DNA from: Escherichia coli
Lineage (GTDB): Bacteria; Pseudomonadota; Gammaproteobacteria; Enterobacterales; Enterobacteriaceae
DNA: 64,000 nucleotides
Strand: one strand, 5' to 3'
Assembly: GCF_003334335.1 (NCBI RefSeq)
Contig: NZ_QOWQ01000003.1
Shown here: positions 1-12,123 of the stretch, in pieces
Position numbering within the stretch: position 1 is the first letter of the stretch
Layout: each line of letters begins with the position of its first letter
Translations under genes and position numbers: made by a program
The notes under the pieces: generated by a model
The model's input: the letters and a program-made list of their open reading frames with translations, nothing else
Databases searched by the model: none
What the model was told of the DNA's origin: nothing

Positions 1-76
1 ACGCGAGGCATCGTCTTAACGAGGCACCGAGGCGTCGCATTCTTCAGATGGTTCAACCCTTAAGTTAGCGCTTATG
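1..76 (+). mobile_element. IS186 (IS4 family) right end, partial at the window edge. The 23-bp terminal inverted repeat CAACCCTTAAGTTAGCGCTTATG lies at 54-76.
   Basis: Positions 1-76 match my recollection of the IS186 right end and finish in its terminal IR. The flanking target GGGTCAGGTCTCCCC fits the G-run/spacer/C-run target preference known for IS186. The terS-like reading frame loses its meaning exactly at 76/77. Confidence 0.75.
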
Positions 77-176
77 GGGTCAGGTCTCCCCGTTCCGCAA
101 GCTGCCGCGATTTTTCCCGCCACTGCTTCACGGCGATATCATCCAGGTAGGCGGGGGCTTTCGGTGGTCTTGCCAT
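77..176 (-). pseudogene. terS: 5' fragment (34 codons) of a P27-family small terminase gene, truncated by IS186.
   Basis: A minus-strand ATG at 174-176 (below the ORF-track size cut-off) gives MARPPKAPAYLDDIAVKQWREKSRQLAERGDLTP. This fits the N-terminal pattern of P27/Terminase_4 small terminases (RPPK, then L..A..W......L...G.LT). The frame runs straight into the IS186 IR, whose TAA (72-74) ends it. Confidence 0.55.
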
Positions 177-298
177 GCTTATTTTTCGTCAGATTATTTT
201 TCAAAAAATTCCCGTGCATAAAAATTTGGGGAGGCGTTCGGTGCCCGGCGGGGTCGGGTTTGTCCTGAAAACGCCCCCCACCCCGTCATACAGCCTCA

Positions 299-481
299 TC
301 AGCGATTGCGGAAACATTCCATAACCTCGCGGTCACGGTCGGTTAATCGCTTCGCTGTGATGCGTTCTGCGCGTCCTGACGCTTTATCTTTATGCCCTGT
401 TTCCTGTGTCTTCCATGCGTCACGCTGCCTTATAAGTCCACGGATAAGGCGGTTTTGTTCCCGCTCATTCATCAGCGTCAT
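299..481 (-). CDS. Hypothetical small protein (about 57-60 aa) between the HNH gene and terS.
   Basis: This is the 3' part of track ORF 299..703. An ATG at 481 (or 472) overlaps the HNH stop codon. The upstream part of the track ORF is just an alternative frame of the HNH gene. No family recognised. Confidence 0.35.
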   Translation of the reverse strand: MTLMNEREQNRLIRGLIRQRDAWKTQETGHKDKASGRAERITAKRLTDRDREVMECFRNR

Positions 482-905
482 ACATCCAGTTATTGCGGTT
501 AGCGGCCCGTTCTTCCTCTTCACGAAATCCACCTGCGGCACGCTTGCTTTTTGTTGCCGGATCAAGCCACTTCGTTTTCTGGTTATGACACGCCTGGCAC
601 AATGGCTGATGGTTCCATTCGGGCCAGAAGAGAACATCATCACCGCCATTAATCGGGATAATGTGATCCACCACCACGGCGGGCGTATATATCCCCTTCT
701 CAAGGCATCGCACGCATAACGGGTTTTTACTCAGATACATGGCGCGGTATTTTTCCCACTGTCTGGAGTACCCACGCGCGCGGCGGTGTCCTCGTCTGGC
801 ATCCTCTGCACGCCATGCCGCCCGCCTGTGCTCCTCACACTTGCCGGACTTAACGCGCCTGTTACAGCCTGGTTCTGTACATCGTCTTAATGGTTGCCAC
901 GGCAT
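465..905 (-). CDS. HNH endonuclease (packaging-associated).
   Basis: 146 aa with a Cys-rich N-terminus and an H-N-H core (VVDHIIPI ... WNHQPLCQACHNQKT). It sits immediately upstream of terS, as in HK97-like cos-packaging systems. Its start overlaps the preceding stop (ATGA). Confidence 0.85.
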   Translation of the reverse strand: MPWQPLRRCTEPGCNRRVKSGKCEEHRRAAWRAEDARRGHRRARGYSRQWEKYRAMYLSKNPLCVRCLEKGIYTPAVVVDHIIPINGGDDVLFWPEWNHQPLCQACHNQKTKWLDPATKSKRAAGGFREEEERAANRNNWMYDADE

Positions 906-1201
906 CAGTACACCCCCACATCACGGTAAGCCGTCCAGAGCGCGCCAATCGTCATGGGTACGCGCGTTTTTGCGTTATCCGCTACCAGCTGGCGATTCTC
1001 GTACAGGTGAGCGATAAACATCATGCAGCCAATCTTTATGGCTGGCGTGAACTCCAGCCCGTCATCAAAGCGCCTGCCTATATGTATCTGGCACGCCTCA
1101 AGCGATGCGGCAATGTATCCGCTGATTAACTGGTCTTCCTCGTCGCCATCGATGCGGCAATGGAGTTTCACTTCTTCCAGGGTGATAAGTTCTTCTGTCA
1201 T
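905..1201 (-). CDS. Head-tail connector protein (gp6-like, Phage_connect_1 type).
   Basis: 98 aa, MTEELITLEEVKLHCRIDGDEEDQLISGYIAA..., which is typical of gp6-like head-tail connector proteins. It is translationally coupled to both neighbours by 4-nt ATGA overlaps. Confidence 0.7.
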   Translation of the reverse strand: MTEELITLEEVKLHCRIDGDEEDQLISGYIAASLEACQIHIGRRFDDGLEFTPAIKIGCMMFIAHLYENRQLVADNAKTRVPMTIGALWTAYRDVGVY

Positions 1202-1536
1202 TTTTCCGCGCCCTCACGACAAAGAATTTCAAGGCGTGTCCTGGCGGCATCCGGCAGCGGTTGCCCGATGATATTCAGTACACGCCCCGCCAGCGGCCCC
1301 GTACTGACCTTTATCCGGCTGGTGGCGTTGATGTCCTTCCGGTACCGTATCCAGATCCTTACGGTACCAATCGCCAGCTCTGCACCCGATGAAATGGCCT
1401 CCTTGCTGCTGATCATGTTCACGCTTGCCCAGAGTGTGTGACCGTCCTCCCACGTTTCGAGTATTTCGCCGGTTATATCCCTGGTCTGTTTCAGGGTCTG
1501 AATCGTTACCCTGTCACGCAGTCGCCCTATGTTCAT
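1198..1536 (-). CDS. Head closure / head-tail adaptor protein (SPP1 gp16-like).
   Basis: Start taken at MNIGRLRDRVTIQ... (ATG 1534-1536, overlapping the portal stop). Length (112 aa) and the RDRVTIQ motif fit phage head-tail adaptor/head-closure proteins. Confidence 0.65.
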   Translation of the reverse strand: MNIGRLRDRVTIQTLKQTRDITGEILETWEDGHTLWASVNMISSKEAISSGAELAIGTVRIWIRYRKDINATSRIKVSTGPLAGRVLNIIGQPLPDAARTRLEILCREGAEK

Positions 1537-2744
1537 TCCGGTTTTTCTCCCTCGCTGATTTTTACTTCCTGTTTCCATGCCTGGCTGAACTCATCACCAC
1601 CATCACGCGGGGACAGCCCTTCACGTTCGCGGGCTTCGTTCGGGCACATAACGCCGGATTTGATGCCGCGTTCATAGGTGGCAAAGCGTTCGCCAGGTGT
1701 GGCCCGTAACAGGTCCGCGCTGTCAAACTCCACCTGATACCGGATACCAGGTACAGGCGAGGCCACCAGCAGGGCGTTTTTTATCTGCTGCTCAAAGTTC
1801 GCCAGCCACGGGCGCATTGTCATGGTGAGAAATGCGCGGCTTGCCTCGCTGAAATTGCTGTAGGTGCTGTTGCTGTATTCCTGCAGAAAAATCGGCGAGA
1901 CGTTGAACATTCGGGCGATGTCTTCAATGGTGAAGCGACGGGAGGCCAGCCATTCAGCATCCTGATTACTCATGCCCAGCTGCTGATAGCTCATACCCCC
2001 TTCAAGGATGGGCGTTTTTCCGGCGTTTCTGGCCCCTTTGTAGCGTTCCAGTGCGGCTAATGCCTGTTTGCCCTTCACGCCGTCCAGCCATTCGCCTGAC
2101 GTGATAACCCCTGCCGCCATCATGCCATCACGCATCACGCTCGCGCCGTGGCGTTGTTGGGCCAGCCCAAGCCCCAGCGATTCGCGGCAGATGGTTACAG
2201 GTGAGCGCCCCATAAAACCGTCATCCGTGGAGTAACGAAGGTGGAGAACCTCCCACGGTAAATAGTTGCGGGTGTTTCCGGTGTAGGCGTCAGTGATGCA
2301 GTAGCGCCAGTTGTGTTCGCCTGTCTGCTCCACGTTCACCGACTGCGGCGGGTAAGGATGTAAAGCCACCGGAAAACCATCACGCCCCCACTGAATCACC
2401 GCATAAGCATTACCGTTTAACAGGCAGTGGCGGATCATCATTCGCTTAAACTGGTAGGGAGTCTGCCACGCGTTCGGGCGCTCGTTGAGGATGTGATCGA
2501 CCGGATGAGAATCAAGCCACTCGCGGGCCTCCTTCCCCTTCTCATTGCGTACCAGGTACAGGTAACACGGCATGGTAGCCACCGCCTCAGAGATGACCGT
2601 CACGGCGTTCATGACGGCGGGCAGTGATTCCGCTGTCCCCGATGATACGTACTCACCCGCCCCCGTGTTCGATGTGCCAGCCAGCGCCATAAATTCATCA
2701 AGCGTCATGCTGCGCTGCTCTTTTTTTCTTCTGAAAAGCCACAT
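1533..2744 (-). CDS. Portal protein, HK97 family.
   Basis: 403 aa. The sequence and its position next to the prohead protease and HK97-type capsid gene fit HK97-family portals (Phage_portal). Confidence 0.85.
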   Translation of the reverse strand: MWLFRRKKEQRSMTLDEFMALAGTSNTGAGEYVSSGTAESLPAVMNAVTVISEAVATMPCYLYLVRNEKGKEAREWLDSHPVDHILNERPNAWQTPYQFKRMMIRHCLLNGNAYAVIQWGRDGFPVALHPYPPQSVNVEQTGEHNWRYCITDAYTGNTRNYLPWEVLHLRYSTDDGFMGRSPVTICRESLGLGLAQQRHGASVMRDGMMAAGVITSGEWLDGVKGKQALAALERYKGARNAGKTPILEGGMSYQQLGMSNQDAEWLASRRFTIEDIARMFNVSPIFLQEYSNSTYSNFSEASRAFLTMTMRPWLANFEQQIKNALLVASPVPGIRYQVEFDSADLLRATPGERFATYERGIKSGVMCPNEAREREGLSPRDGGDEFSQAWKQEVKISEGEKPE

Positions 2745-2745
2745 A

Positions 2746-3318
2746 TCACACCCCCGCTAAATCCACCCACCAGCGGCGATTATCCGCACGCGGCATTTTT
2801 TCGGGGTGCTGCTCATACAGGGAACGGCGGGCCAGCTCCACGCCGGAATCGGGGTAAGCCGGTACCGATGTAACGGTAATTTCGTACAGTTCCGCCACCA
2901 GCACGGTGCGCACGCATGGATCTGTTGTGGTATCCCATACATCCTTACGGGAGCGAAAGCCAAAGCTCATCCCCGAGATGTCCCCACGCTTAACCAGTTC
3001 GATAACGTCGCGCCCTGTACTGGTATCCGGTGGGGTCAGTTCAAAGCGTAACCCTGTTTCGTCCTCTTCCAGTTTCAGCGTGCCGGAACGGGTACGCCCC
3101 AGCAACATGCTGTGGTCATGCTCATACAGGCCGCGAACGTCATTACCCGCCGCAAGCCATTCAGTAAACGCTCCCCGCTGGAATTTTTCGTAAAACTCCC
3201 CCCATAGCAGCTCTGAAAGCTTATCCCAGCGAACAACGTAGCCTGTAAGCGTGTTGCTGGCGCTGGTGGTGATTTCCGATGACCGGATTTCCATACTCTT
3301 CATAATTTTTTCACCCAT
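2746..3318 (-). CDS. Prohead serine protease, HK97 family (Peptidase S78/U35).
   Basis: 190-aa track ORF. The more likely start is ATG 3303 (MKSMEIR, preceded by GGTGA). The family assignment rests on overall resemblance to HK97-family prohead proteases as I recall them and on its position between the capsid and portal genes. Confidence 0.85.
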   Translation of the reverse strand: MGEKIMKSMEIRSSEITTSASNTLTGYVVRWDKLSELLWGEFYEKFQRGAFTEWLAAGNDVRGLYEHDHSMLLGRTRSGTLKLEEDETGLRFELTPPDTSTGRDVIELVKRGDISGMSFGFRSRKDVWDTTTDPCVRTVLVAELYEITVTSVPAYPDSGVELARRSLYEQHPEKMPRADNRRWWVDLAGV

Positions 3319-3357
3319 AAAACACTAAAGGGGCTTTTAAGCCCCTTCTGTATGCTG

Positions 3358-4515
3358 TTAATCGTCGTCCTGTGGCAGTTCCAGAATCTTGATCGCGTTC
3401 GAATCCACCACGCCACCGCCTAAATATTTCTGCGTGAAAATTTTGATGAAGCCCGGCTCTGTGAGGTTGTCCGGTCTGGTGCGAACACCTGTTTCGTGAT
3501 CAACAATGTAGTAACCGCGTTTGAAGTCACCCAGGGCAATAACGTTATCAGGCATAAACTCCAGATATTCGACCGGAAGGCCCAGCAACGTATCAGGATC
3601 ACCCGCCTGTAAACGGTCACGCCAGATGTAATCACCGTTCGCGTTCTTCACCTTCTGGAGTTTTGCCGCCGTCGTGGAGTTAACCACCCAGACCGCGTTT
3701 TTGCGGTATTTTTTACGTAATGCAAATTTCAGGTCGATCAGCGGGTCCGCAGATGTCCACGCCAGAGATTCGGAAGGTTTAATTACCTGCAACGTACCAA
3801 AATCACGCTCTTTGTCGTTCTTCTCTGCACGGGGTACGGATAAAAAGCCTTTTGCTTTTTTGTCACCGTCGCCCACAACCAGATCGCTTTCTTCGGTTTC
3901 CGTGAAGGTGTCGCCAATCTCGCCCGTCAGCCATGAAAGGATGTCCACATCGGAAAAATCCACGATTTCCTGTGTGGTGCGCGGGTACGCATAGACCGGA
4001 TACAGCTTAATGCTCACCTCGTTAATCTGCGGGGTGCTGGTCTGTTCGCGTGTCTTACCCTCTTCACCGTGGTTAACGGTCGCACCGCCAGCGGAAACAA
4101 GCTGCTTAAACTCGTTGCTGCTGATTTTCTTCACGGTACAGATGCGGCGCATGGTGGATTCATCCGTCAGCATTCGCATGATTTCGGTGTTCAGTTCGGG
4201 GATAACGGTATAACCACCATCAGCGGGAACGCCTGTACTTAATGCGCGGGTTTCACCTGTCAGGATGTAGTTGCGGAGTTCTGCCGGGTCAGTGGTCTGG
4301 CTGCTTTTACCTGGCTTGCTGCGCTCTTCGTCTGCAATGGCTTCAAGGCGGGAAATGTCTTTATCGAGGGATTCAGCTTTAGCGCGTAATTCGTCAAATG
4401 TTGCGCCCTCAGCATCGTTAAGACTGCGGTTTTCTTTTTCCGCGTTCTCCAGCATGTCGCGCATCTGATTTTTAATGGCGGTTTTCTGCTGGCGTAATTC
4501 GATTATTCTCGGCAT
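3358..4515 (-). CDS. Major capsid protein, HK97 family, with an N-terminal scaffolding (delta) domain.
   Basis: 385 aa. A coiled-coil-rich N-terminal stretch of about 100 aa is followed by an HK97-fold-like body. This is typical of HK97-type capsid proteins that need no separate scaffold. Confidence 0.9.
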   Translation of the reverse strand: MPRIIELRQQKTAIKNQMRDMLENAEKENRSLNDAEGATFDELRAKAESLDKDISRLEAIADEERSKPGKSSQTTDPAELRNYILTGETRALSTGVPADGGYTVIPELNTEIMRMLTDESTMRRICTVKKISSNEFKQLVSAGGATVNHGEEGKTREQTSTPQINEVSIKLYPVYAYPRTTQEIVDFSDVDILSWLTGEIGDTFTETEESDLVVGDGDKKAKGFLSVPRAEKNDKERDFGTLQVIKPSESLAWTSADPLIDLKFALRKKYRKNAVWVVNSTTAAKLQKVKNANGDYIWRDRLQAGDPDTLLGLPVEYLEFMPDNVIALGDFKRGYYIVDHETGVRTRPDNLTEPGFIKIFTQKYLGGGVVDSNAIKILELPQDDD

Positions 4516-4554
4516 AAAAAAAGTCCTGGGGTTAAGTAAGGAACTCCAGGACGC
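4516..4554 (-). terminator. Terminator-like hairpin immediately upstream of the capsid ATG. Its 3' arm contains the capsid Shine-Dalgarno sequence.
   Basis: The minus-strand RNA reads GCGTCCTGG-AGTTCCTTACTTAACC-CCAGGAC-TTTTTTT-ATG. That is a 7-bp stem (4523-4529 / 4546-4552), a 16-nt loop and a U7 run. AGGA lies inside the 3' arm, 8 nt before the ATG. Confidence 0.45.
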
Positions 4555-4707
4555 GGCAAAAACTCAACCGTTTTTCATAAGGAAATCAGCAATCGCACCG
4601 ATCGTTTTCCCGCCTGGTAATGAATATTGGCGAGAACATTAACAGGCGGAAAAGTGGCCCCAGCGTCCTGGCACCACGGGCGAGAATAATCATGATTCAG
4701 TTCGGGT

Positions 4708-4755
4708 AAAATATGCCGATCCTGTCAGTGAACAACGTGGAACAACCGCGAACAA
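4708..4755 (-). promoter_or_regulatory. Candidate promoter of the packaging/capsid operon with three helically phased direct repeats.
   Basis: GAACAA on the plus strand (TTGTTC on the minus strand) occurs at 4730, 4740 and 4750, exactly 10 bp apart. The proximal copy sits at a -35 position, 16 bp from a TATTTT -10-like hexamer (4708-4713, minus strand). Confidence 0.35.
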
Positions 4756-4773
4756 ATAATTTACAAAAAATGA

Positions 4774-4796
4774 CAAAAAGCCGGATTGCTCCGGCT
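4774..4796 (-). terminator. Rho-independent terminator after the 74-aa orphan gene.
   Basis: Minus strand: AGCCGGA-gcaa-TCCGGCT followed by TTTTTGTCATTTTTT. Confidence 0.75.
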
Positions 4797-4806
4797 GTAT
4801 GCGTGC

Positions 4807-5031
4807 TCAGTCCCTGATCCCTTTCAGAAATTCTATCAATGCATCTATCTGTTCAGGATTTACCGCCAGCATTTCACCGGACAGAGCACATCTCACAAAA
4901 CCATGCTGATCCTTTTCAATCAGTGCGCCCGTCTCCAGGAATGCGCGGTAATCATTGATGCTCATCGTCTCCATGTTGTCAGCATGGTATTTATCACGCT
5001 GTTTTAATATCTCATCAAATTTCATCGGCAT
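4807..5031 (-). CDS. Hypothetical protein (74 aa) in a stand-alone cassette.
   Basis: Track ORF 4807..5109. The preferred start is ATG 5031 (MPMKFDEILK...), preceded by GAGGAAAA. It is bracketed by two near-identical terminators. No family recognised. Confidence 0.55.
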   Translation of the reverse strand: MPMKFDEILKQRDKYHADNMETMSINDYRAFLETGALIEKDQHGFVRCALSGEMLAVNPEQIDALIEFLKGIRD

Positions 5032-5125
5032 TGTTTTTTCCTCTGTTGTGTCTGTTTGTTTCAGATAGTAACTATGCCTGACCGTGACGAAAACCCGGTA
5101 ATGCGCCATACCGTTTCAACTGGTG

Positions 5126-5150
5126 CAAAAAAAGCCGGATTTCTCCGGCT
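5126..5150 (-). terminator. Rho-independent terminator after the perC-like gene.
   Basis: Minus strand: AGCCGGA-gaaa-TCCGGCT followed by TTTTTTTG. The stem is identical to the terminator at 4774-4796. Confidence 0.75.
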
Positions 5151-5156
5151 GTGTGA

Positions 5157-5429
5157 TTAGCTGTCCTGGTAATTTCGCCATATTTCATCACCAGCACCAT
5201 CCATACCCATTTCGGCATAAGTGCGATCGACCGCCTTTTTCAGGTCTCCGTAATTATCCGGCGGCTCCGGTGGCCTCTGTGCCTTCCTGGAACATTCCAG
5301 CCGTCGCATCGTAACCTGATGCCGTTCCTTGTCTGTCTCCACCAGCAGCATGACTTCACCCCATCGCGCCGACGCCCTCCGGTAAAAGCCTTTTGCCTCG
5401 AGTTCCTCCGCTATGCGGTCATGTACCAT
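5157..5429 (-). CDS. PerC-family transcriptional regulator-like protein (90 aa).
   Basis: Start taken at MVHDRIAEELEAKGFYRRASARWGEVM... (ATG 5427-5429, RBS GAGGGGG, 10 nt after the ssb stop). The AEELE..G.YRRA..RW.EV motif resembles PerC/Pch proteins. Confidence 0.6.
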   Translation of the reverse strand: MVHDRIAEELEAKGFYRRASARWGEVMLLVETDKERHQVTMRRLECSRKAQRPPEPPDNYGDLKKAVDRTYAEMGMDGAGDEIWRNYQDS

Positions 5430-5439
5430 CGTCACCCCC

Positions 5440-5850
5440 TCAGAACGGAATATCATCACCGTAGGGGTCATCGTCTCCCGCTGGTGGCTGATTACCCTGT
5501 GTGCCTGTGGTTTTGCGTCTGTTCCCGCCAGGACGTGCCGCACGGGCACTGATTACGCTGTCTGCAATAACCTGATACCCCTGTCGTGTTTCCCCGTTCT
5601 GTCCGGTCCACTGGCTTACCTGCATCGTGCCGGATACGCTGGCAACATCGCCTTTTTGATGTTTAGCCAGGAAATCGGCCTGTTTGCCAAATGCGATAAC
5701 CGATAACCATAACGTCGCCTGTCCGTCATGTGCTTGGCTGCATGGCAACGATACCGCCATACGCGCCAGAGTCATCGGTGTGCCCTTGCTGCTCTGTTTT
5801 ACCAGCGGGTCGTCCACCAGGCGCCCGTAAGCTGCAATTTGTGCTGTCAT
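5440..5850 (-). CDS. ssb: Single-stranded DNA-binding protein.
   Basis: 136 aa with an OB-fold-like N-terminus, a Gly/Pro/Gln-rich linker and the diagnostic acidic tail DDDPYGDDIPF. Confidence 0.9.
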   Translation of the reverse strand: MTAQIAAYGRLVDDPLVKQSSKGTPMTLARMAVSLPCSQAHDGQATLWLSVIAFGKQADFLAKHQKGDVASVSGTMQVSQWTGQNGETRQGYQVIADSVISARAARPGGNRRKTTGTQGNQPPAGDDDPYGDDIPF

Positions 5851-5859
5851 ATTGCCACC

Positions 5860-6165
5860 TCAGTGAAGCGATCCGGCGTTGTTCTTTTTCATCTCTTCCA
5901 TCATTTTTTCAGTGAGCATTACGCACTGAAAACCCATGTTTTTGATGTCTACGGGTTTCATGCCTTTGTCAGTGGATATCACAGGCAGAATATCCTGATA
6001 CACATCGCGGTCAGGGTAACTAAGCACACAAAGCGCCCATGATGCCACGGGTGAGGATCCTTCGTCTGTTTCAACCCACCAGCCTGGTGTAGCTGCGCTT
6101 ATTTGCTGAATCGTGATCCGTCCGTTGTGCTTGTAAAGTTTTTCACCAAATTTTGGTTCGCTCAT
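5860..6165 (-). CDS. Hypothetical protein (101 aa).
   Basis: Track ORF in the same operon. Its start overlaps the upstream stop by 4 nt (6162-6165). No family recognised. Confidence 0.5.
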   Translation of the reverse strand: MSEPKFGEKLYKHNGRITIQQISAATPGWWVETDEGSSPVASWALCVLSYPDRDVYQDILPVISTDKGMKPVDIKNMGFQCVMLTEKMMEEMKKNNAGSLH

Positions 6166-6413
6166 GATTCCAACTCTCCGGTTTTAACGTTGATTGTTGT
6201 TACCTGTTCCGCTTCGGCAATCTCACGTTCTGTCAGCGTGGCAAAGTTTGCCGCTGCTGTGGTCATGAATGCGCTTATCAGGTCGGGATGTTCTTTCGCG
6301 TATCCTTCCCCCGCGTGGCGGTCTATCGTTCTGATTGCCACCTTTAAGGCGTGCTCTGTCATGTCTAACGCTTTATATTTTGGCTCTGTTCTGTCTCTGT
6401 GTTTTTGAGTCAT
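6162..6413 (-). CDS. Hypothetical protein (83 aa).
   Basis: Track ORF 6162..6545. The start is moved to ATG 6413 (MTQKHRDR...) because the upstream 44 codons lie in the iteron array. Confidence 0.45.
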   Translation of the reverse strand: MTQKHRDRTEPKYKALDMTEHALKVAIRTIDRHAGEGYAKEHPDLISAFMTTAAANFATLTEREIAEAEQVTTINVKTGELES

Positions 6414-6617
6414 TTGCCCACCTCTACCCACTTTTTTCGCCCACTTTTTACGTTTTCCCACTTCGTCCAACGTGGGAAATTTGGGATTTATATCATCTTG
6501 TTTCATAGGTATTTTTTTAGTGCCCACTTTTTGGGATATATACACGTGGGAAAGTGGGTAATTTTGTTAAAATTACGTTAAATCGCCCACCTTTCCCACT
6601 TTTAATGCCCACTTTTT
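6414..6617. repeat. Iteron array, the probable satellite origin of replication.
   Basis: There are 11 copies of the core CCCAC(T/C)TT. Eight are direct (about 6416, 6427, 6439, 6456, 6522, 6585, 6594, 6607), several as GCCCACTTTTT. Three are inverted (6472, 6546, 6554). They flank an AT-rich spacer (6480-6521). The array starts on the stop codon of the rep helicase gene. Confidence 0.7.
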
Positions 6618-8013
6618 ACAGTGGTCCTACATCATCACCGTCAATGTAGATCACGTCGTCTTTTTCCAGTTTGGCTAACCATCGTTTAAGGTGTTTTGTG
6701 TCATACCCCAGCTTTTTCATATCGTCACGTAACAGCGGGATCGTGCACTTGTCGCCGTGCTGTGTGCGTGAACGTATGCACCCCCATAGCGCGGTATGGT
6801 TTTCCGTCTTGTTGCCTGCCTCCTCGATGCGCTCCAGTTCAACGGGAGGGCGCGGCTTATCCACCACCACCAGCGACGTGATTAACTCCCCGTCAGCGTC
6901 GGTAAAAAGCTCCACCACCCGCAAATCATAGGCAGCCTCTTTGAGTTCCTCCGCGTCCTTCATTTTGGTGCATGAGATAACCAGCGCTTCGCTTCCTGCG
7001 TCCTCCCTGCGTATCCGGTATTCAGCATCCAGCGAAGCACGAAATGCACTGGAACCGCGCGCGCCTTTCGTCTCATCCTTGCCGGAATGGTGAACCACCA
7101 GCACCGTGGCCCCTGTGCGCCGTTTAAGCTCGTCACACCCACGGATAAACGCCCCCATATCACGGGAATCATTTTCATCATTGCCACCAAAGCAACGCGC
7201 CAGAGTATCAAGAATAATCATGCGTACAGGTTTACCCGTTTCCCGCTCCACCTGACGGGCAGCGATAACCAGTTCATCAACATCAAGCGGGACAGCCGGA
7301 AAAACTGGACGGTTTACCAGATACAGATTTTTCACCTGCTCACCGTGCACAACCTCCCAGGCTTTTACACGACGCGGAACGCCGATACCGCCTTCACCAA
7401 CCACATAGAGAACAGCGCCATGCGCCACCCTGCGGCCTCCCCACTGGCGGCCCGTGGAAACGTGACACGCCCACGAACCCGCAAGGAATGATTTATAGGA
7501 ACCGCTTGCCCCGTATATGCTGCATAGCGACGATGCCGGAATAATCCCCTTTACCACGTAATCTAATTGCGTGTCGTATCCGGCAGATCCAACGCTCATC
7601 GGTAGCGTGGTTTTTCGCTGGTGGTGTTCTTCCCCTGGCTTTTTCCCCCGCTCCCGTTCCAGATATTCGCGCCAGTTCTCCCGCTTCTGGCTGTGTATCC
7701 CTTCGGGGTAATAATTCGCATCAGTTACGCCCGCCGCCGCCAGCTTGTGCGCAATGGCATTAATATTTGATGGCCTGATGTGGCCTGCCTTGTACAGCCG
7801 GACACAATAGCGCCCCTCGTCGATGATTCTCAGGTCTGCCAGTTCATCCAGTTGATCATCAGCCAGCACAATGGGAGGCACATTATCGCCAGCCAGTCGC
7901 CCGTCCTGTTCCTGCCACTGTTTCGCATGTGCCCACGCATCACTACCCGCAAAAATGATGACTTCGGTCATCTTGTCGTAAGGCTGTTTTTTTAAGTTCG
8001 GTGCGCTTTTCAT
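6616..8013 (-). CDS. Replication initiator/helicase, RepA-like (AAA_25 / RecA-fold ATPase).
   Basis: 465 aa with Walker A GASGSYKS and Walker B MIILD, followed by VVHHSGKDETKGARGSS, typical of RepA/AAA_25 helicases of plasmids and satellites. I could not recognise a primase (toprim/EGYATA) motif in the N-terminal 150 aa. Confidence 0.8.
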   Translation of the reverse strand: MKSAPNLKKQPYDKMTEVIIFAGSDAWAHAKQWQEQDGRLAGDNVPPIVLADDQLDELADLRIIDEGRYCVRLYKAGHIRPSNINAIAHKLAAAGVTDANYYPEGIHSQKRENWREYLERERGKKPGEEHHQRKTTLPMSVGSAGYDTQLDYVVKGIIPASSLCSIYGASGSYKSFLAGSWACHVSTGRQWGGRRVAHGAVLYVVGEGGIGVPRRVKAWEVVHGEQVKNLYLVNRPVFPAVPLDVDELVIAARQVERETGKPVRMIILDTLARCFGGNDENDSRDMGAFIRGCDELKRRTGATVLVVHHSGKDETKGARGSSAFRASLDAEYRIRREDAGSEALVISCTKMKDAEELKEAAYDLRVVELFTDADGELITSLVVVDKPRPPVELERIEEAGNKTENHTALWGCIRSRTQHGDKCTIPLLRDDMKKLGYDTKHLKRWLAKLEKDDVIYIDGDDVGPL

Positions 8014-8309
8014 TTCTTGCCCCTGAATCCGTTAATCATGTTTTTCATCTTCTGAATATTGGCGCGTGCTTTCTCCCTGCTGGTGGGCACGTTACGCGGT
8101 ACGGCCTGCACCAGAGAAAAATCACGCCGGAACTGATAAACAGGCATCACGCAATCATATTCGTAACTTTCACGACGGTAGGTTACGCGCCGTTCCTCCA
8201 CGCCCTTAATCATTACCGTGCCGCCGTACTGGTCGCGGTAAATATCACCGCGCGTAAATTTAGGGTGAGTGTTGCCACTGGCAGTTAAGCCAGAATATTT
8301 AAGTTTCAT
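8010..8309 (-). CDS. Small protein (99 aa), possibly DUF4222-like.
   Basis: Track ORF whose stop overlaps the rep start (8010-8013). The central YRD..G..V.I..V...RVTYRRE.YE..CVMP...F motif resembles prophage DUF4222 proteins. The family call is tentative. Confidence 0.5.
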   Translation of the reverse strand: MKLKYSGLTASGNTHPKFTRGDIYRDQYGGTVMIKGVEERRVTYRRESYEYDCVMPVYQFRRDFSLVQAVPRNVPTSREKARANIQKMKNMINGFRGKK

Positions 8310-8314
8310 TATTT

Positions 8315-8548
8315 TTATTCTCCGGTGTGCTGTTCGTTATATCTGTCGTGCAATGTCTCTATTTCTTGTAGTTCCATTATTACAGGCTCAAGAAGCGTTA
8401 TTAATGCCGTGACAATTCTTGATTTTTGTTTGTCGCGTTCATTGTCGCCAAGTGTTTCAAGCCATATGCGCAATATTTCCAGCATGTTTTCACTGTGAGA
8501 AAGTGCAAGAAATACGCGTTCTGTTGTTTCGTGGTAAATATCACGCAT
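8315..8548 (-). CDS. Hypothetical protein (77 aa).
   Basis: Track ORF in the co-oriented early operon. No family recognised. Confidence 0.45.
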   Translation of the reverse strand: MRDIYHETTERVFLALSHSENMLEILRIWLETLGDNERDKQKSRIVTALITLLEPVIMELQEIETLHDRYNEQHTGE

Positions 8549-8620
8549 GGCTTACATCCTCAGGAAATTTTCTTCTGTAACGCGCCTCTGCCACATATTC
8601 CGCATAATCGGCGGCGATAT

Positions 8621-8773
8621 TCAGTACATCAAGCCCGTTGATTTATATTCTCTCGTGGAAAGTAAGAAAAAAGCCGCTCTAATAAGTTCTGGCATTGACG
8701 AAAGCGCATCAGCCGCATCATCAGGAACGCCGGAAAATTCTTGTTTCAGGGAATTAAAACGATCATCACGCAT
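8621..8773 (-). CDS. Hypothetical protein (about 50 aa).
   Basis: Track ORF 8621..8821. The start is placed at MRDDRF (ATG 8773), which overlaps the upstream stop (ATGCGTGA). Weak call. Confidence 0.3.
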   Translation of the reverse strand: MRDDRFNSLKQEFSGVPDDAADALSSMPELIRAAFFLLSTREYKSTGLMY

Positions 8774-8996
8774 AACCCCCCCCATTTTCACAATCAGCAA
8801 CAAGAATATTTTTAGCGTCATTCAGCGACCGCGTTGCGGTGTATCGGATACATTCCAGGGCGAATAGTGTGTATTCTTCCCTTTCTTCCCTTTCTTCCTT
8901 TTGTGCAAGCTCTGCTGTGCATTCAATATCAATAAGCGCGTGCATCAGCGTAGTGAGTGCGGCGGCGGCTGCGTCCGGTGTGGTTTTATTGCACAT
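8766..8996 (-). CDS. Hypothetical acidic protein (76 aa).
   Basis: Track ORF 8766..9050. The start is placed at MCNKTT (ATG 8996), preceded by GGAGGGG. It contains an EEREEREE acidic stretch. Confidence 0.4.
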   Translation of the reverse strand: MCNKTTPDAAAAALTTLMHALIDIECTAELAQKEEREEREEYTLFALECIRYTATRSLNDAKNILVADCENGGGYA

Positions 8997-9216
8997 GTAC
9001 CCCTCCGCATTTTTTTTCGTTAGAAATAAGCGTTCTTCTTTCCTGTTCATCGATCAGGAATACGCAGACCTCACCGCTAAGGCGTTTAAGTAAGCCGATG
9101 ATTGCCCCTGATTCGCTGTCGGTCATCATGCCTGGGTAATCCTCTGCCAGTGCGCAAATAACTTCGATTTGGTGGGCGCGTTCTGCTGCCTGTTGTAGTG
9201 TGATTTCCTGGCTCAT
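8986..9216 (-). CDS. Hypothetical protein (76 aa).
   Basis: Track ORF. Its ATG overlaps the stop of the icd-like gene (ATGA at 9213-9216). Confidence 0.45.
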   Translation of the reverse strand: MSQEITLQQAAERAHQIEVICALAEDYPGMMTDSESGAIIGLLKRLSGEVCVFLIDEQERRTLISNEKKCGGVHVQ

Positions 9217-9413
9217 AAGCCTACCCCCTGACGAATACGGGCAGCGAATACCATCACGCAGCCAGCCGGGGATTGCAGGCGTGCTTCCTGTTCGCTGGTG
9301 GCCTCAATGGTAATCACGCGCGGTTGTGCAGTGCTCAGGGCGATAAAACGCCAAATGTATTTATTCAGGTTGTGCGAGTCCCGCCCTTGCGGGTGTGTGG
9401 TATGATTTCTCAT
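9213..9413 (-). CDS. Icd-like (P4-type cell division inhibitor-like) small protein, 66 aa.
   Basis: These are the last 66 codons of the 340-aa track ORF (MRNHTTHPQGRDSHNLNKYIWRFIAL...), with a GAGG RBS. They resemble proteins annotated as Icd-like in P4-like elements, as I recall them. This is the first gene downstream of the leftward promoter. Confidence 0.55.
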   Translation of the reverse strand: MRNHTTHPQGRDSHNLNKYIWRFIALSTAQPRVITIEATSEQEARLQSPAGCVMVFAARIRQGVGL

Positions 9414-9510
9414 AGCTACCTCGATACTCTCGTTATCGTTGGTGGTTAGAAGCCCGGTTAGTGTTAGCGCACTGCCGGGTTTCGTCGTTTCTGCACCTTG
9501 CGCCAACAAG

Positions 9511-9583
9511 GTGTTGAACACCAATTTAAACCCAGGTGTTAAACACGTCAAGTGTTGAACACTTATTTTTTTTCCTGCATACT
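9511..9583. promoter_or_regulatory. Back-to-back divergent promoters with three 11-bp palindromic operators.
   Basis: GTGTTGAACAC lies at 9511-9521, GTGTTAAACAC at 9536-9546 and GTGTTGAACAC at 9552-9562. The leftward promoter has -35 TTGACG (9546-9551) and -10 TAAATT (9523-9528) with a 17-bp spacer. The rightward promoter has -35 TTGAAC (9555-9560) and -10 CATACT (9578-9583) with a 17-bp spacer. Confidence 0.6.
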
Positions 9584-9612
9584 GCATTTGTTTTTTATGA
9601 GGGGTACACCAC

Positions 9613-9792
9613 ATGGCGACAAAAGCAGTAAACGCAAAATCACAAACCGTTGCGGCAAGGGTTCCGCATGAAGTTATGAACAATGTTGAGGCGGTAAAAA
9701 TGCCTGGCGAAAGTACGGGGCAATTTGTTACTGCAGCATTAAAACGAGAAGTTGAATATCGCCAGCGGCGCAAGGCCAAAGAACCAGAGTAA
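9613..9792 (+). CDS. Ribbon-helix-helix (CopG/Arc-like) DNA-binding protein, 59 aa. Candidate satellite repressor.
   Basis: Not in the ORF track (<60 aa). ATG at 9613 with GAGGGG upstream. MATKAVNAKSQTVAARVPHEVMNNVEAVKMPGESTGQFVTAALKREVEYRQRRKAKEPE shows the strand / helix / G-x-S-x / helix pattern of RHH proteins. It is the only plus-strand gene next to the operators. Confidence 0.55.
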   Translation: MATKAVNAKSQTVAARVPHEVMNNVEAVKMPGESTGQFVTAALKREVEYRQRRKAKEPE

Positions 9793-9849
9793 TCACCATC
9801 AGCGCCGTGGTGTAAGGTATTACGGCGCATTGCTATGCAGGACAACACA

Positions 9850-10023
9850 ATGACCGATAAAGAATTGACCAAAACATTATCACCGGCACGGAAAAGACGG
9901 CGCAGAAAGATAGAGCATGAATCAGAAAGATTCGCGCCATGTGCTTTTGCCCTTGAGCAATTCCTTAAAGAGTACAGGGAAAAGCGCTCATTGCAGGTAT
10001 GGCAACGAACTGAACCAGACTGA
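9850..10023 (+). CDS. Hypothetical basic protein (57 aa).
   Basis: Track ORF 9835..10023. ATG 9850 has AGGA 7 nt upstream. It carries an RKRRRRK stretch and is co-oriented with the RHH gene, before a strong terminator. Confidence 0.35.
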   Translation: MTDKELTKTLSPARKRRRRKIEHESERFAPCAFALEQFLKEYREKRSLQVWQRTEPD

Positions 10024-10118
10024 TAGCATTGCCCACCAGCCTGATAGCGACTATCATTGCCGTTCTTATGTTTGGGATCACACACACAAACGGCGCAGCG
10101 GGTTATCTGTTCAGAAAG

Positions 10119-10146
10119 GCGGCTCCATTTCGGGGCCGCTTTTTTT
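10119..10146 (+). terminator. Rho-independent terminator of the short rightward (RHH) transcription unit.
   Basis: GCGGCTCC-atttc-GGGGCCGC (8-bp stem with one G-U pair) followed by TTTTTTT. Confidence 0.75.
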
Positions 10147-10292
10147 ATACCTGAAAAACCCCAATTTTGTTGTTTTTCAGTTTCACCAGGGCGAACGAAT
10201 CCCCGCCCACGTTCTGGCGTATATTCAATCTTCATGGTTATAGCTCTGTGTTCAGATGATTGATGTGTGGCGGCTGCGTGCCGCCAGCGTGA

Positions 10293-10481
10293 TTAATGAA
10301 CTGCCTTGCAGCTATCCTTCCAGGCCAGAACCTCGGATAAAGACCAGCCAACGGAACGACCGCCAAGTTTACGACGTGATGGGAATTGTCCGGCCTTTTC
10401 CAGGCGGTAGCGACACGTACGGCTAAGGCCGGTTAGTTTTTCGCATTCTTTTTCACGTATAAACCGATCAGTGCTTAACAC
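10293..10481 (-). CDS. alpA: AlpA-family (MerR-type HTH) phage/satellite transcriptional regulator.
   Basis: The C-terminal 62 aa read LSTDRFIREKECEKLTGLSRTCRYRLEKAGQFPSRRKLGGRSVGWSLSEVLAWK, a classic AlpA signature. The likely start is GTG 10481, preceded by AGGGGGG. The track ORF extends to ATG 10562. Confidence 0.8.
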   Translation of the reverse strand: MLSTDRFIREKECEKLTGLSRTCRYRLEKAGQFPSRRKLGGRSVGWSLSEVLAWKDSCKAVH

Positions 10482-10632
10482 TATTGCCCCCCTTTCGTTT
10501 CTTAAAGAGTCATCAGGTGTCTTATTGTGTCGTATTGTTCCCGCTAGAGTGATGAATGGCAAATATTGAGGATGTATTATTTACAGAAAATGAAACAGTA
10601 AGAATAAAATCTTTTAAATTCATGTTAATACA

Positions 10633-10665
10633 AAGGCATAAAATATTGTTTCATGCCTTTTTTTT
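10633..10665 (+). terminator. Orphan terminator-like hairpin on the plus strand in the int-alpA intergenic region.
   Basis: AAGGCATAAAA-tattg-TTTCATGCCTT (one mismatch) followed by a T-run ending at 10665. No plus-strand gene lies upstream, so the function is unknown. Confidence 0.4.
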
Positions 10666-10813
10666 CGCTCTTTAAAGAGTGATTCGCTAGTGTATAAAAA
10701 ACCAGTGACACATTAAAAATCAGCCACTTATAAATCTGTATGCTTTTTCGCCTCTTGTTCGTGGTTGTTCCACATTGTTGCTCATTGTTGCACGTTGTAT
10801 CTGTTCGCATATC

Positions 10814-10829
10814 CAGTATGCGCATACTG
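10814..10829. promoter_or_regulatory. Perfect 16-bp palindrome CAGTATGCGCATACTG just downstream of int. Candidate protein-binding site.
   Basis: The palindrome is seen directly. No U-run follows on either strand, so it is not a canonical terminator. Confidence 0.3.
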
Positions 10830-10846
10830 AAAAAACACGAAAAAAA

Positions 10847-12076
10847 TTATTTTCTTCTGGCTACGGGTAGCGTGGTTACGTTTTCATGTGTTCCCGCCAG
10901 TATCCCTAACCGCTCCGTCCACATATCCAGCGCATTGCGTTTAGCATCCAGATAACGGGAATGATTATAAACTCGCTGCATTCCTGGCATCTGGTGGCCT
11001 GTAAGCTGCTCCACGACATGCGGATCAACGCCTAAATCGTTCAGCATGGTTGTAAAGGTGCGCCGGATGTCATGCAGTGACCAGTGAGGATGATTAAGCC
11101 TCCTGTGCGCTAATCTTCCATACTGCGATACGCTGGCCTCCTGTTTCACTTCCCCCAGCAATAAGCCCGTGTGCCTGTTCTGCTCCACCAGCTGCGTGAC
11201 GAACGGCAGGATCGCTTCCGGTATGGGCCGGAATATTGCGACCTTCGTTTTGCTGTGCTCCTTCGGAACGGTCCATAGCATTTCCGTAAAATCCCACTCC
11301 CCGATCTCCGATAACCTCAGTTCTACCGTTCTGGCTCCGAAGACAATCAGGAGGCGGATTAACGCGACGTAGTAAGGGGAGAATATTTTTTTGTCCAGTG
11401 CCTGCAATAATTCGCCAAGTTCTTTGTTACTTAAGACACGTTCGCTTATATCCGGTTTTTTCCCAACGTCCGCCACGTTCAGATCGTCCAGAACGTTGCT
11501 GATTGCATAGCGCCGCCTACGGCAGAACTTAAGCGCCTGTTTGCACGCCTGTAGCACGAATCCGGCAGTAACAGGCGTTCGCTTTGCCACCTGGTCAAAA
11601 CAGGCCAGCCAGTGCCGTAGCTCGCATTTATCCAGCGGCATAGCACCAATCTGCTGTATTACGTGATTATTAAGTCGCCTTTTCAGGGCGATATAATCCA
11701 CGCGGTTTTCCTTTACGTAATACTCAAGCCAGTAGGTGAGCGCATCGCCAACCGTTACGGGCTTTAACGCTTCCTGTACGGTGTAATTCATCTCATGACG
11801 TGGATTTTTCCCCTCAGCCAGCCATGTGCGACACTGTGCGGCTTTTTCCCTGGCTGCTTTCAGGCTCAGATCAGGATAACTTCCCAGCTTAATGCGTTCG
11901 GGTCGTGTCTCCCTTCCCGTTCCGGCCCTGTATGTGAAATACCAGGTCAATTTCCCTGATGTTAAATATTTCACGCTCAGGTTTCCGCCATCACTATAAA
12001 ACGTGTTTTTCTCCGCTGGCTTACCATGAAGTTTCCTTAGCAAGGTATCGCTCAGTTTGTTCATTGCTCTGCTCAC
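10847..12076 (-). CDS. int: Tyrosine integrase, P4-like (DUF4102 N-terminal domain).
   Basis: 409 aa. It has tyrosine-recombinase catalytic-type motifs (GARTVELR, HDIRRT, YNHSRY). The GTG start at 12076 is preceded by GAGGGGG. It lies adjacent to the junction with tqsA. Confidence 0.92.
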   Translation of the reverse strand: MSRAMNKLSDTLLRKLHGKPAEKNTFYSDGGNLSVKYLTSGKLTWYFTYRAGTGRETRPERIKLGSYPDLSLKAAREKAAQCRTWLAEGKNPRHEMNYTVQEALKPVTVGDALTYWLEYYVKENRVDYIALKRRLNNHVIQQIGAMPLDKCELRHWLACFDQVAKRTPVTAGFVLQACKQALKFCRRRRYAISNVLDDLNVADVGKKPDISERVLSNKELGELLQALDKKIFSPYYVALIRLLIVFGARTVELRLSEIGEWDFTEMLWTVPKEHSKTKVAIFRPIPEAILPFVTQLVEQNRHTGLLLGEVKQEASVSQYGRLAHRRLNHPHWSLHDIRRTFTTMLNDLGVDPHVVEQLTGHQMPGMQRVYNHSRYLDAKRNALDMWTERLGILAGTHENVTTLPVARRK

Positions 12077-12099
12077 GTTTTACCCCCTCTTTACGAAAA

Positions 12100-12123
12100 A
12101 GTGACTACACCAGTGACTACACC
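12100..12123. repeat. Tandem 12-bp repeat AGTGACTACACC x2 between int and the att junction. Candidate integrase arm-type sites.
   Basis: Exact tandem duplication seen at 12100-12111 and 12112-12123, within the 175 bp that separate the int start from the tqsA junction. Confidence 0.4.

Follow-up and report, generated by a model that had tools for sequence, protein, structure and literature searches.

The locus considered here lies at positions 6414–8013 of a 64-kb stretch of Escherichia coli DNA (the window, with positions counted from its first nucleotide), where the gene for a 465-amino acid helicase-like protein, Rep, is followed at its 3′ end by a dense cluster of short repeats. The locus raises three questions: what the repeats are for, which part of Rep would recognize them, and whether Rep makes its own primers. 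Positions 6414–8013 are the replication module (rep plus origin, ori) of a capsid-forming phage-inducible chromosomal island (cf-PICI) in E. coli, and the origin belongs to a kind that has been published. As a whole, the observations are very probably best explained by a cf-PICI replication module in which Rep would be a three-part, self-loading initiator-helicase, with a winged helix reading AAAGTGGG iterons. Among phage satellites such an origin is unremarkable, and in E. coli it is very common. What is new here, and of modest interest, is a pairing between residue 441 of Rep and one base of the iteron, together with a modular N-terminal domain (N-domain) that lacks catalytic residues.

The iteron array 3′ of rep

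The 5-bp core CCCAC/GTGGG was found in 11 copies within 6410–6620, spanning 6417–6612. Eight of these read CCCAC on the plus strand (starting at 6417, 6427, 6440, 6457, 6523, 6586, 6595, and 6608) and three read GTGGG (6472, 6546, and 6554). The background expectation is 0.275 cores per 211 bp, for which the Poisson probability of 11 copies is ~1e-14, and the other 211-bp stretches of the window contain at most 3 cores each. An initial annotation, made from the sequence alone, had described 11 copies of the unit CCCAC(T/C)TT, eight direct and three inverted, around an AT-rich segment, with the last copy overlapping the rep stop codon. The counts and the layout were confirmed. The octamer was exact in 7 of the 11 copies, and these are the only CCCACYTT sequences in the whole 64-kb window, all lying inside 6427–6615; the remaining four share the CCCAC core alone. 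The overlap had to be corrected, in that the last 8-mer (6608–6615) abuts the stop codon (6616–6618) and only the extended A/T tract of this copy, CCCACTTTTT, runs into it, by 2 nt.

The 202 bp that separate the rep stop codon from the start codon of the following gene (ATG, 6413) are filled by the array. Its parts are listed below.

6414–6620, minus strand: ori, with 11 iteron cores at positions conserved in 17 related origins
6586–6617, minus strand: rep-proximal iteron set, with cores at 6608, 6595, and 6586, the A-tract of the first copy reaching into the stop codon
6546–6558, plus strand: inverted iteron pair, GTGGG at 6546 and 6554
6539–6544, minus strand: TGTATA motif, invariant columns T84 and T86–A89 in the alignment
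6478–6522, no strand: central AT-rich segment, 45 bp, 73–80% A+T in 30-nt windows
6417–6476, minus strand: rep-distal iteron set, inverted at 6472 and direct at 6457, 6440, 6427, and 6417

Read in the orientation of rep, the rep side consists of three direct iterons, a second AT-rich spacer (6559–6585), the inverted pair, TGTATA, and one direct iteron; after the AT-rich core come one inverted iteron and then four direct ones. Six cores thus lie on the rep side of 6478–6522 and five on the far side. By analogy with other PICI origins (PMC6092414, PMC9371898), this central segment is presumed to be the DNA-unwinding element. The TGTATA motif does not vary across the 17 aligned origins, even in those from Enterobacter and Citrobacter with GTGCG-type iterons, and could be a host-factor site or the point at which melting starts. 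The iteron units measure 8–10 bp, and their spacings are irregular, at 8–17 bp within each set. No DnaA box (≤1 mismatch) was found in 6414–6620, nor was any promoter-like or terminator-like site found in the origin. DnaA boxes and 17–22-bp iterons in helical phase, by which origins of the iteron-plasmid type are recognized, are therefore not features of this array.

In Gram-negative PICIs, the origin has been described as following rep directly on its 3′ side and as consisting of two iteron sets with an AT-rich region between them (Fillol-Salom 2018, PMC6092414). At the 17 related loci the first iteron likewise sits at the rep stop codon and the origin immediately 3′ of rep, and the PICI-style layout suggested by the initial annotation was borne out, the gene set of the island being that of a cf-PICI. 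In the same study, E. coli PICIs were found to carry four allelic Pri-Rep variants, and the rep-ori segment of one island, EcCICFT073, rescued a temperature-sensitive plasmid, with rep and ori both required (PMC6092414). EcCICFT073 was located in the CFT073 chromosome, where DUF4222, Rep, ori, a homologous small gene, a single-stranded DNA-binding protein (SSB), and PerC could be identified. The gene context is the same as in the window, and there too ori directly follows the 3′ end of rep, its AT-rich region being surrounded by iterons of either orientation. In the N-domain (aa 1–125) the Reps of EcCICFT073 and of the window share 63% identity, but no similarity is seen beyond aa 125. The EcCICFT073 protein has 584 aa and a D5_N/DUF5906/Pox_D5 (SF3-type) motor, whereas the window Rep has an AAA_25 motor and a different C-terminal domain; the iterons are 11 GGTAGA(C/T)A repeats in the former and AAAGTGGG in the latter. 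The origin layout is thus known and tested, but in another allele.

The helicase and its C-terminal domain

Rep is encoded on the minus strand and could be divided into an N-domain, a linker, a motor, and a C-terminal domain (C-domain), as follows.

6616–8013, minus strand: rep, 465-aa initiator-helicase with N-domain, linker, AAA_25 motor, and predicted C-terminal winged helix; stop codon at 6616–6618
7651–8013, minus strand: N-domain, aa 1–121, α/β, with no Pfam model; possibly TOPRIM-like in fold, without acidic catalytic residues
7072–7578, minus strand: AAA_25 helicase core, RecA-fold, aa 146–314 (Pfam, alignment to RSF1010 RepA 1g8y, and Foldseek)
6619–6816, minus strand: C-domain, putative winged helix, aa 400–465, proposed as iteron reader (AlphaFold2 pattern)

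An AlphaFold2 model of Rep was built on a 30-sequence alignment (model numbering equals protein numbering minus one). The C-domain was predicted with a pLDDT (predicted local distance difference test) of 86–95 as three helices and a β-hairpin (H-H-H-β-β), which is a winged-helix pattern. Residue 441, a His in the window (codon 6691–6693), immediately precedes the third helix of this predicted fold.

For the analysis of covariation, 18 AAA_25-type modules were compared; their origins were classed by dominant core, and every column of the alignment (~470) was scanned. Residue 441 was the sole column with disjoint residues between the iteron classes: His is found with GTGGG at nine loci, Asn with GTGAG at seven, and Gly or Ser with GTGCG at two. 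Individual pairs of loci illustrate the same point. The C-domains of loci L033 and L038 differ at residue 441 alone, and their iterons differ. In L034, from E. coli O157:H7, the N-domain and motor are 94 and 97% identical to those of the window, respectively, yet residue 441 is Asn where the window has His, and the iterons have changed to AAAGTGAG. In L031 the N-domain is 45% identical and the C-domain 100% identical to that of the window, and the iterons are identical.

Whether a neighbour-joining tree was built from all of Rep, from the N-domain, from the motor, from the C-domain minus residue 441, or from residues 442–465, the H/N state needs 5–6 changes among 16 taxa. Residues 442–465 sit between codon 441 and ori; because these intervening residues do not track iteron class, simple physical linkage does not explain the pairing. 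The C-terminal winged helix is therefore proposed to be the iteron reader, with residue 441 specifying the iteron base. The covariation between residue and base is a direct observation, and from it we infer DNA binding by this domain. The initial annotation had suggested that co-variation be sought between the iterons and the N-terminal part of Rep across related islands; L031 and L034 contradict such a pairing, and it is residue 441 that iteron class tracks.

The Reps of Staphylococcus aureus pathogenicity islands (SaPIs) read iterons through a C-terminal winged helix and have been classed among AAA+ helicases (PMC9371898). The logic proposed for the window is similar, in that a winged helix would read short iterons placed 3′ of its own gene and flanking an AT-rich region, and the SaPI origin, like that of the window, has iteron copies in opposite orientations. 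The SaPI motor is of the AAA+ type, whereas that of the window Rep is a RecA-fold AAA_25 motor. As no sequence similarity between the two proteins was detected, they are regarded as analogous, not homologous.

The motor was identified by the Pfam family AAA_25, which matched Rep aa 146–314 with an E value of 1.7e-44 (152 bits against a cutoff of 27) and was the sole Pfam family found, with no D5_N or SF3 match. Its nearest solved sequence relative was RSF1010 RepA (phmmer to 1g8y, E 0.0075, aa 147–319). By Foldseek, the best match of the whole Rep model was T7 gp4, and the motor also matched RadA/Rad51. Over its full length, Rep matched phrog_2850, and the RefSeq name at L001, a closely related locus, is "helicase RepA family protein". 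These sequence matches support assignment of the motor to the RepA/AAA_25 type, as the initial annotation had it, and not to the D5_N/SF3 type of P4-alpha-like proteins. Walker A was located as GASGSYKS (aa 168–175, nt 7489–7512, minus strand) and Walker B as IILD (aa 266–269, nt 7207–7218). The Tyr of Walker A is conserved in 18 of 18 AAA_25-type Reps, with GPSGSYKS as the motif in two distant loci.

RSF1010 RepA works with a separate initiator (RepC) and a separate primase (RepB′). Its helicase core is homologous to that of the window Rep, but RSF1010 RepA is a 279-aa motor without a DNA-reading domain, whereas the window Rep adds an N-domain and a putative winged helix and has its own iteron origin. 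No RepB/RepC-like match was obtained among the island open reading frames (ORFs) scanned, and Rep is not a stand-alone motor of the RSF1010 type, served by a separate initiator and primase.

P4 alpha resembles the window Rep as a satellite initiator-helicase with octamer iterons. It has an active TOPRIM primase (EGYATA motif), an SF3 motor, a C-terminal winged-helix origin-binding domain (PDB 1KA8), and the iteron TGTTCACC. The EGYATA primase, the SF3 motor, and the TGTTCACC iterons are not present in the window island, where the word TGTTCACC occurs zero times; the iteron thus differs from the P4 word, as the initial annotation had stated.

The N-terminal domain shared between motor classes

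A genome scan with the Rep alignment, using one genome per species, returned 29 loci from Enterobacterales and one Pasteurellaceae. The scan drew on N-domain patterns and yielded mostly non-AAA_25 motors, AAA_25 loci being fetched singly; because it picked N-domain patterns, it exposed the modularity of this domain. Four motor classes were found behind the N-domain, namely AAA_25, D5_N+DUF5906+Pox_D5, DUF927, and DUF5906-only. The domain is 45–63% identical ahead of these four unrelated motors, each of which comes with unrelated iterons. At most of the 29 loci a dense repeat cluster lies directly 3′ of the rep-type gene, although the words differ, those seen in other loci being GGTGAACA, GGTAGACA, GGGACAAC, TGAACCAC, TAACCCAC, GGTGGAACA, GGTATACA, and GCGGCA; L026 and L030 are among the few loci in which no clearly enriched word was found there. 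At L006, L008, L010, L011, L018, and L022–L024, D5_N-class Reps that share this N-domain use GGTGAACA iterons, and since GGTGAACA is the reverse complement of TGTTCACC, this class is linked to P4 alpha.

The same modularity was seen in protein searches. A search with Rep aa 1–145 recovered proteins that are 62–75% identical and then continue as D5_N, DUF927-like, or AAA_25 sequence. When 1.84 billion representative proteins were searched with a profile, 136 members were obtained, all with the N-domain ahead of known motor classes; the full-length members (~440–740 aa) carry the domain N-terminally, with no Pfam model over it. The boundary of the N-domain is a recombination point, in that some E. 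coli loci match rep nt 1–367 only and others match nt 393 onward only. Judged from these comparisons, the N-domain is a shared module and does not appear to be the iteron reader or the origin-specificity module. In E. coli, whichever of the four motor classes is present, the gene next upstream of rep is the DUF4222 gene, which was detected by tblastn in 18 of the 29 genome-scan loci; its product is a possible partner of the conserved N-domain.

The N-domain was predicted with confidence (pLDDT 84–93). Among solved structures, the TOPRIM domains of DnaG-type primases, T7 gp4, and Twinkle come closest to it in fold, and it may be a dead TOPRIM, although this fold assignment is not secure. The Foldseek match of the whole model to T7 gp4 and a match of the N-domain to a primase-annotated PHROG lend weak additional support to a TOPRIM likeness. 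A PDB sequence search with the N-domain profile gave nothing useful, and when remote N-domain homologs were scanned with Pfam, their first 150 aa matched no known domain. Rep aa 1–150 contain neither a primase nor a TOPRIM catalytic motif, in agreement with the initial annotation, which had seen none in the same 150 residues. The position of the TOPRIM Glu is occupied by Ala22 (AGSDA) and that of the DxD motif by R72-L-Y74 (R72-L-Y74-K-A-G), and both positions are non-acidic across 23 diverse homologs.

The alternative that the N-domain is an active primase of unusual chemistry, and Rep a true Pri-Rep, has to be weighed against these data. Besides the structural neighbours named above, it draws on a match of the N-domain to a PHROG annotated as DNA primase and on the labelling of such proteins as primases in databases and in the PICI literature. 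With both catalytic positions non-acidic, and with no catalytically intact relative among the 136 members of the profile search, we consider it unlikely. Because the shared N-domain lacks the catalytic residues of a primase, the annotation "Pri-Rep" or "DNA primase" in enterobacterial PICIs is probably wrong.

Function of the repeats, proposed mechanism, and the surrounding island

A second alternative concerns the repeats, which might serve mainly as an operator, for Rep or for another protein, over the downstream genes (the small gene, SSB, PerC, and capsid). The array does lie inside a one-directional operon, and its last iteron, GAGGTGGG, overlaps the ribosome-binding region 3–10 nt before the downstream ATG. 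At L037, L038, L040, and L043–L046, however, another gene has taken the downstream place, and the repeat array has stayed with rep. The region is also devoid of promoter-like sites, and its layout of two sets around an AT core matches origins proven in EcCICFT073 and SaPIs. An operator as the main function is therefore very unlikely, and a secondary regulatory role besides that of an origin may exist. The last iteron (6414–6424) forms a Shine-Dalgarno-like sequence for the 83-aa gene that starts at 6413, and Rep binding could therefore affect translation of this gene.

The N-domain (aa 1–150) had been put forward in the initial annotation as a candidate origin-binding or primase-recruiting module. 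A well folded, conserved domain at one end of an initiator, matched by no Pfam model, would be a natural candidate. The same domain precedes four motor classes with unrelated iterons (the GGTGAACA, GGTAGACA–GGTGGAACA, and GCGGCA words), iterons are identical in L031 despite the divergent N-domain and changed in L034 despite the near-identical one, and not one N-domain column separates the iteron classes among the 18 AAA_25 modules. An origin-binding role for the N-domain is highly improbable, whereas it may well recruit a primase or another partner.

The repeat region 6414–6620 is non-coding. The refuting condition named in the initial annotation, namely that the repeats might be coding sequence of a conserved protein in a long ORF (6162–6545), was checked. 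In the window this 127-aa ORF reads through part of the array, but in relatives the long form is interrupted by an in-frame stop, which lies 1–2 codons before the ATG in L033, L039, and L042 and 25 codons before it in L034. The RefSeq annotation of L001 has the short form, with the gene starting at the ATG equivalent to window 6413. When the origins were aligned, a G-to-A change was seen at each repeat position, whichever way the repeat faces; such a concerted change does not fit coding constraint, which argues that the array is not a reading frame. The persistence of the array beside rep at the loci with another downstream gene points the same way. Coding sequence can be set aside with near certainty, and so can a packaging (cos/pac) site, since the array travels with rep and not with the terminase genes, even though the island has an HNH gene and probably a terminase packaging system of its own.

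For the replication module favoured here, the following mechanism is proposed. The C-terminal winged helix of Rep would read the AAAGTGGG iterons, with His441, where the third helix begins, contacting the fourth base of GTGGG. In the steps that would follow sequence recognition, Rep would assemble on both iteron sets beside the AT-rich core and then open the core, load itself as a hexameric helicase, and unwind the DNA with its RecA-fold AAA_25 motor, and the island SSB would coat the single strands. Because Rep is without recognisable primase chemistry, priming would fall to host DnaG or to a recruited partner. A constant, non-catalytic, TOPRIM-like adaptor or collar is the role proposed for the N-domain, which might bind DnaG, some other protein of the replisome, or the DUF4222 product.

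Several points count against this mechanism. The module for which replication has been tested by experiment in the literature is that of the D5_N-class EcCICFT073, not the AAA_25 variant. In the motor, the Tyr of Walker A sits where P-loop NTPases, including RSF1010 RepA (GGAGKS), have Gly before the Lys, and the linker and parts of the motor were poorly predicted by AlphaFold2, with pLDDT <50 over several segments; for these two reasons, the ATPase competence of Rep is an assumption. The winged-helix call on the C-domain has a single source, the secondary-structure pattern of the AlphaFold2 model, and no sequence relative of this domain was found in the PDB. The covariation comes from a small sample, 18 loci of a mosaic, related family, in which the Gly/Ser-GTGCG class consists of two divergent loci only. 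An uncorrected Fisher test of H/N against G/A gave P ~1e-4, which is borderline after correction for ~470 columns.

A wider reading is put forward tentatively, as possible but doubtful. Enterobacterial satellite Reps may combine a dead TOPRIM-like adaptor, docking to a fixed partner (DnaG, a part of the replisome, or the DUF4222 protein), with an exchangeable cassette of motor, winged helix, and iterons in which residue 441 acts as a specificity switch. The motor slot would then be filled by at least four unrelated helicase families, and within the AAA_25 cassette, His, Asn, or Gly/Ser at 441, paired with G, A, or C in GTGNG, would give separate origin-specificity groups. If so, such groups would allow co-resident islands to replicate without cross-talk. 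The pairing of residue 441 with the iteron predicts how an initiator would distinguish its own origin from the one on a neighbouring island, and it bears on the compatibility of co-resident satellites and on the engineering of orthogonal replicons.

All genes within 1–12,100 of the window are on the minus strand. In falling coordinates, the island runs from the integrase through small genes, DUF4222, rep, the repeats, and the 83-aa and 101-aa genes to SSB, followed by the structural genes for HK97-type capsid, S78 prohead protease, portal, head-completion protein, connector, and HNH. The cf-PICI gene set was recognized in the window from Pfam matches to integrase, rep, HK97-type capsid, S78 protease, portal, connector, and HNH. 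The genes bearing on the origin and its boundaries are listed below.

10847–12076, minus strand: tyrosine integrase, at the island end, adjoining pntB/pntA
8010–8309, minus strand: DUF4222 gene, its stop codon overlapping the rep start (ATGA)
6162–6413, minus strand: downstream 83-aa gene, phrog_1231, short form; the long form 6162–6545 is not conserved
5440–5850, minus strand: island-encoded SSB (Pfam SSB, E 6.5e-16; NCBIfam)

The Pfam match bears out the earlier statement that the island supplies its own SSB. The cf-PICI family of EcCIEDL933 was defined in Alqurainy et al. (bioRxiv 10.1101/2022.09.08.507074), where rep/ori was not dissected; like the window island, this family has integrase, rep, HK97-type capsid, protease, portal, connectors, and HNH. 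In L001, whose rep region is 97% identical to that of the window, TerS and TerL follow and tail genes are absent. Neither terminase gene is visible in the window because its left edge cuts the island. L001 is located between phoQ and roxA. Closely related islands thus occupy different sites, pntAB in the window and phoQ/roxA in L001 and in CFT073 (compared loci L001 and L049).

The rep-ori DNA matched 1,452–1,660 of 5,426 complete E. coli genomes, about a quarter, the range reflecting the query span, and O157:H7 strains have the same rep-ori module at ~90% nucleotide identity. In the phage database, the rep-ori DNA was without a match; at the protein level there were four matches, three of them in short records (3–17 kb) that look like satellites.

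Some of the remaining observations concern fragments of the module. In four database proteins (P0134, P0135, P0195, and P0198), the Rep N-domain is fused straight to an SSB domain, and at 2616–2944 of L031 truncated remnants of the small gene and SSB are found. Together, these suggest recurrent deletions of motor, origin, and neighbours in decaying islands. Further upstream in the window, a 340-aa ORF (9213–10235, minus strand) has an Icd-like cell-division-inhibitor domain confined to its C terminus (aa 293–336), the upstream 250 aa matching no family; in L001 an ORF of 62 aa, beside an ash pseudogene, encodes the Icd-like protein on its own.

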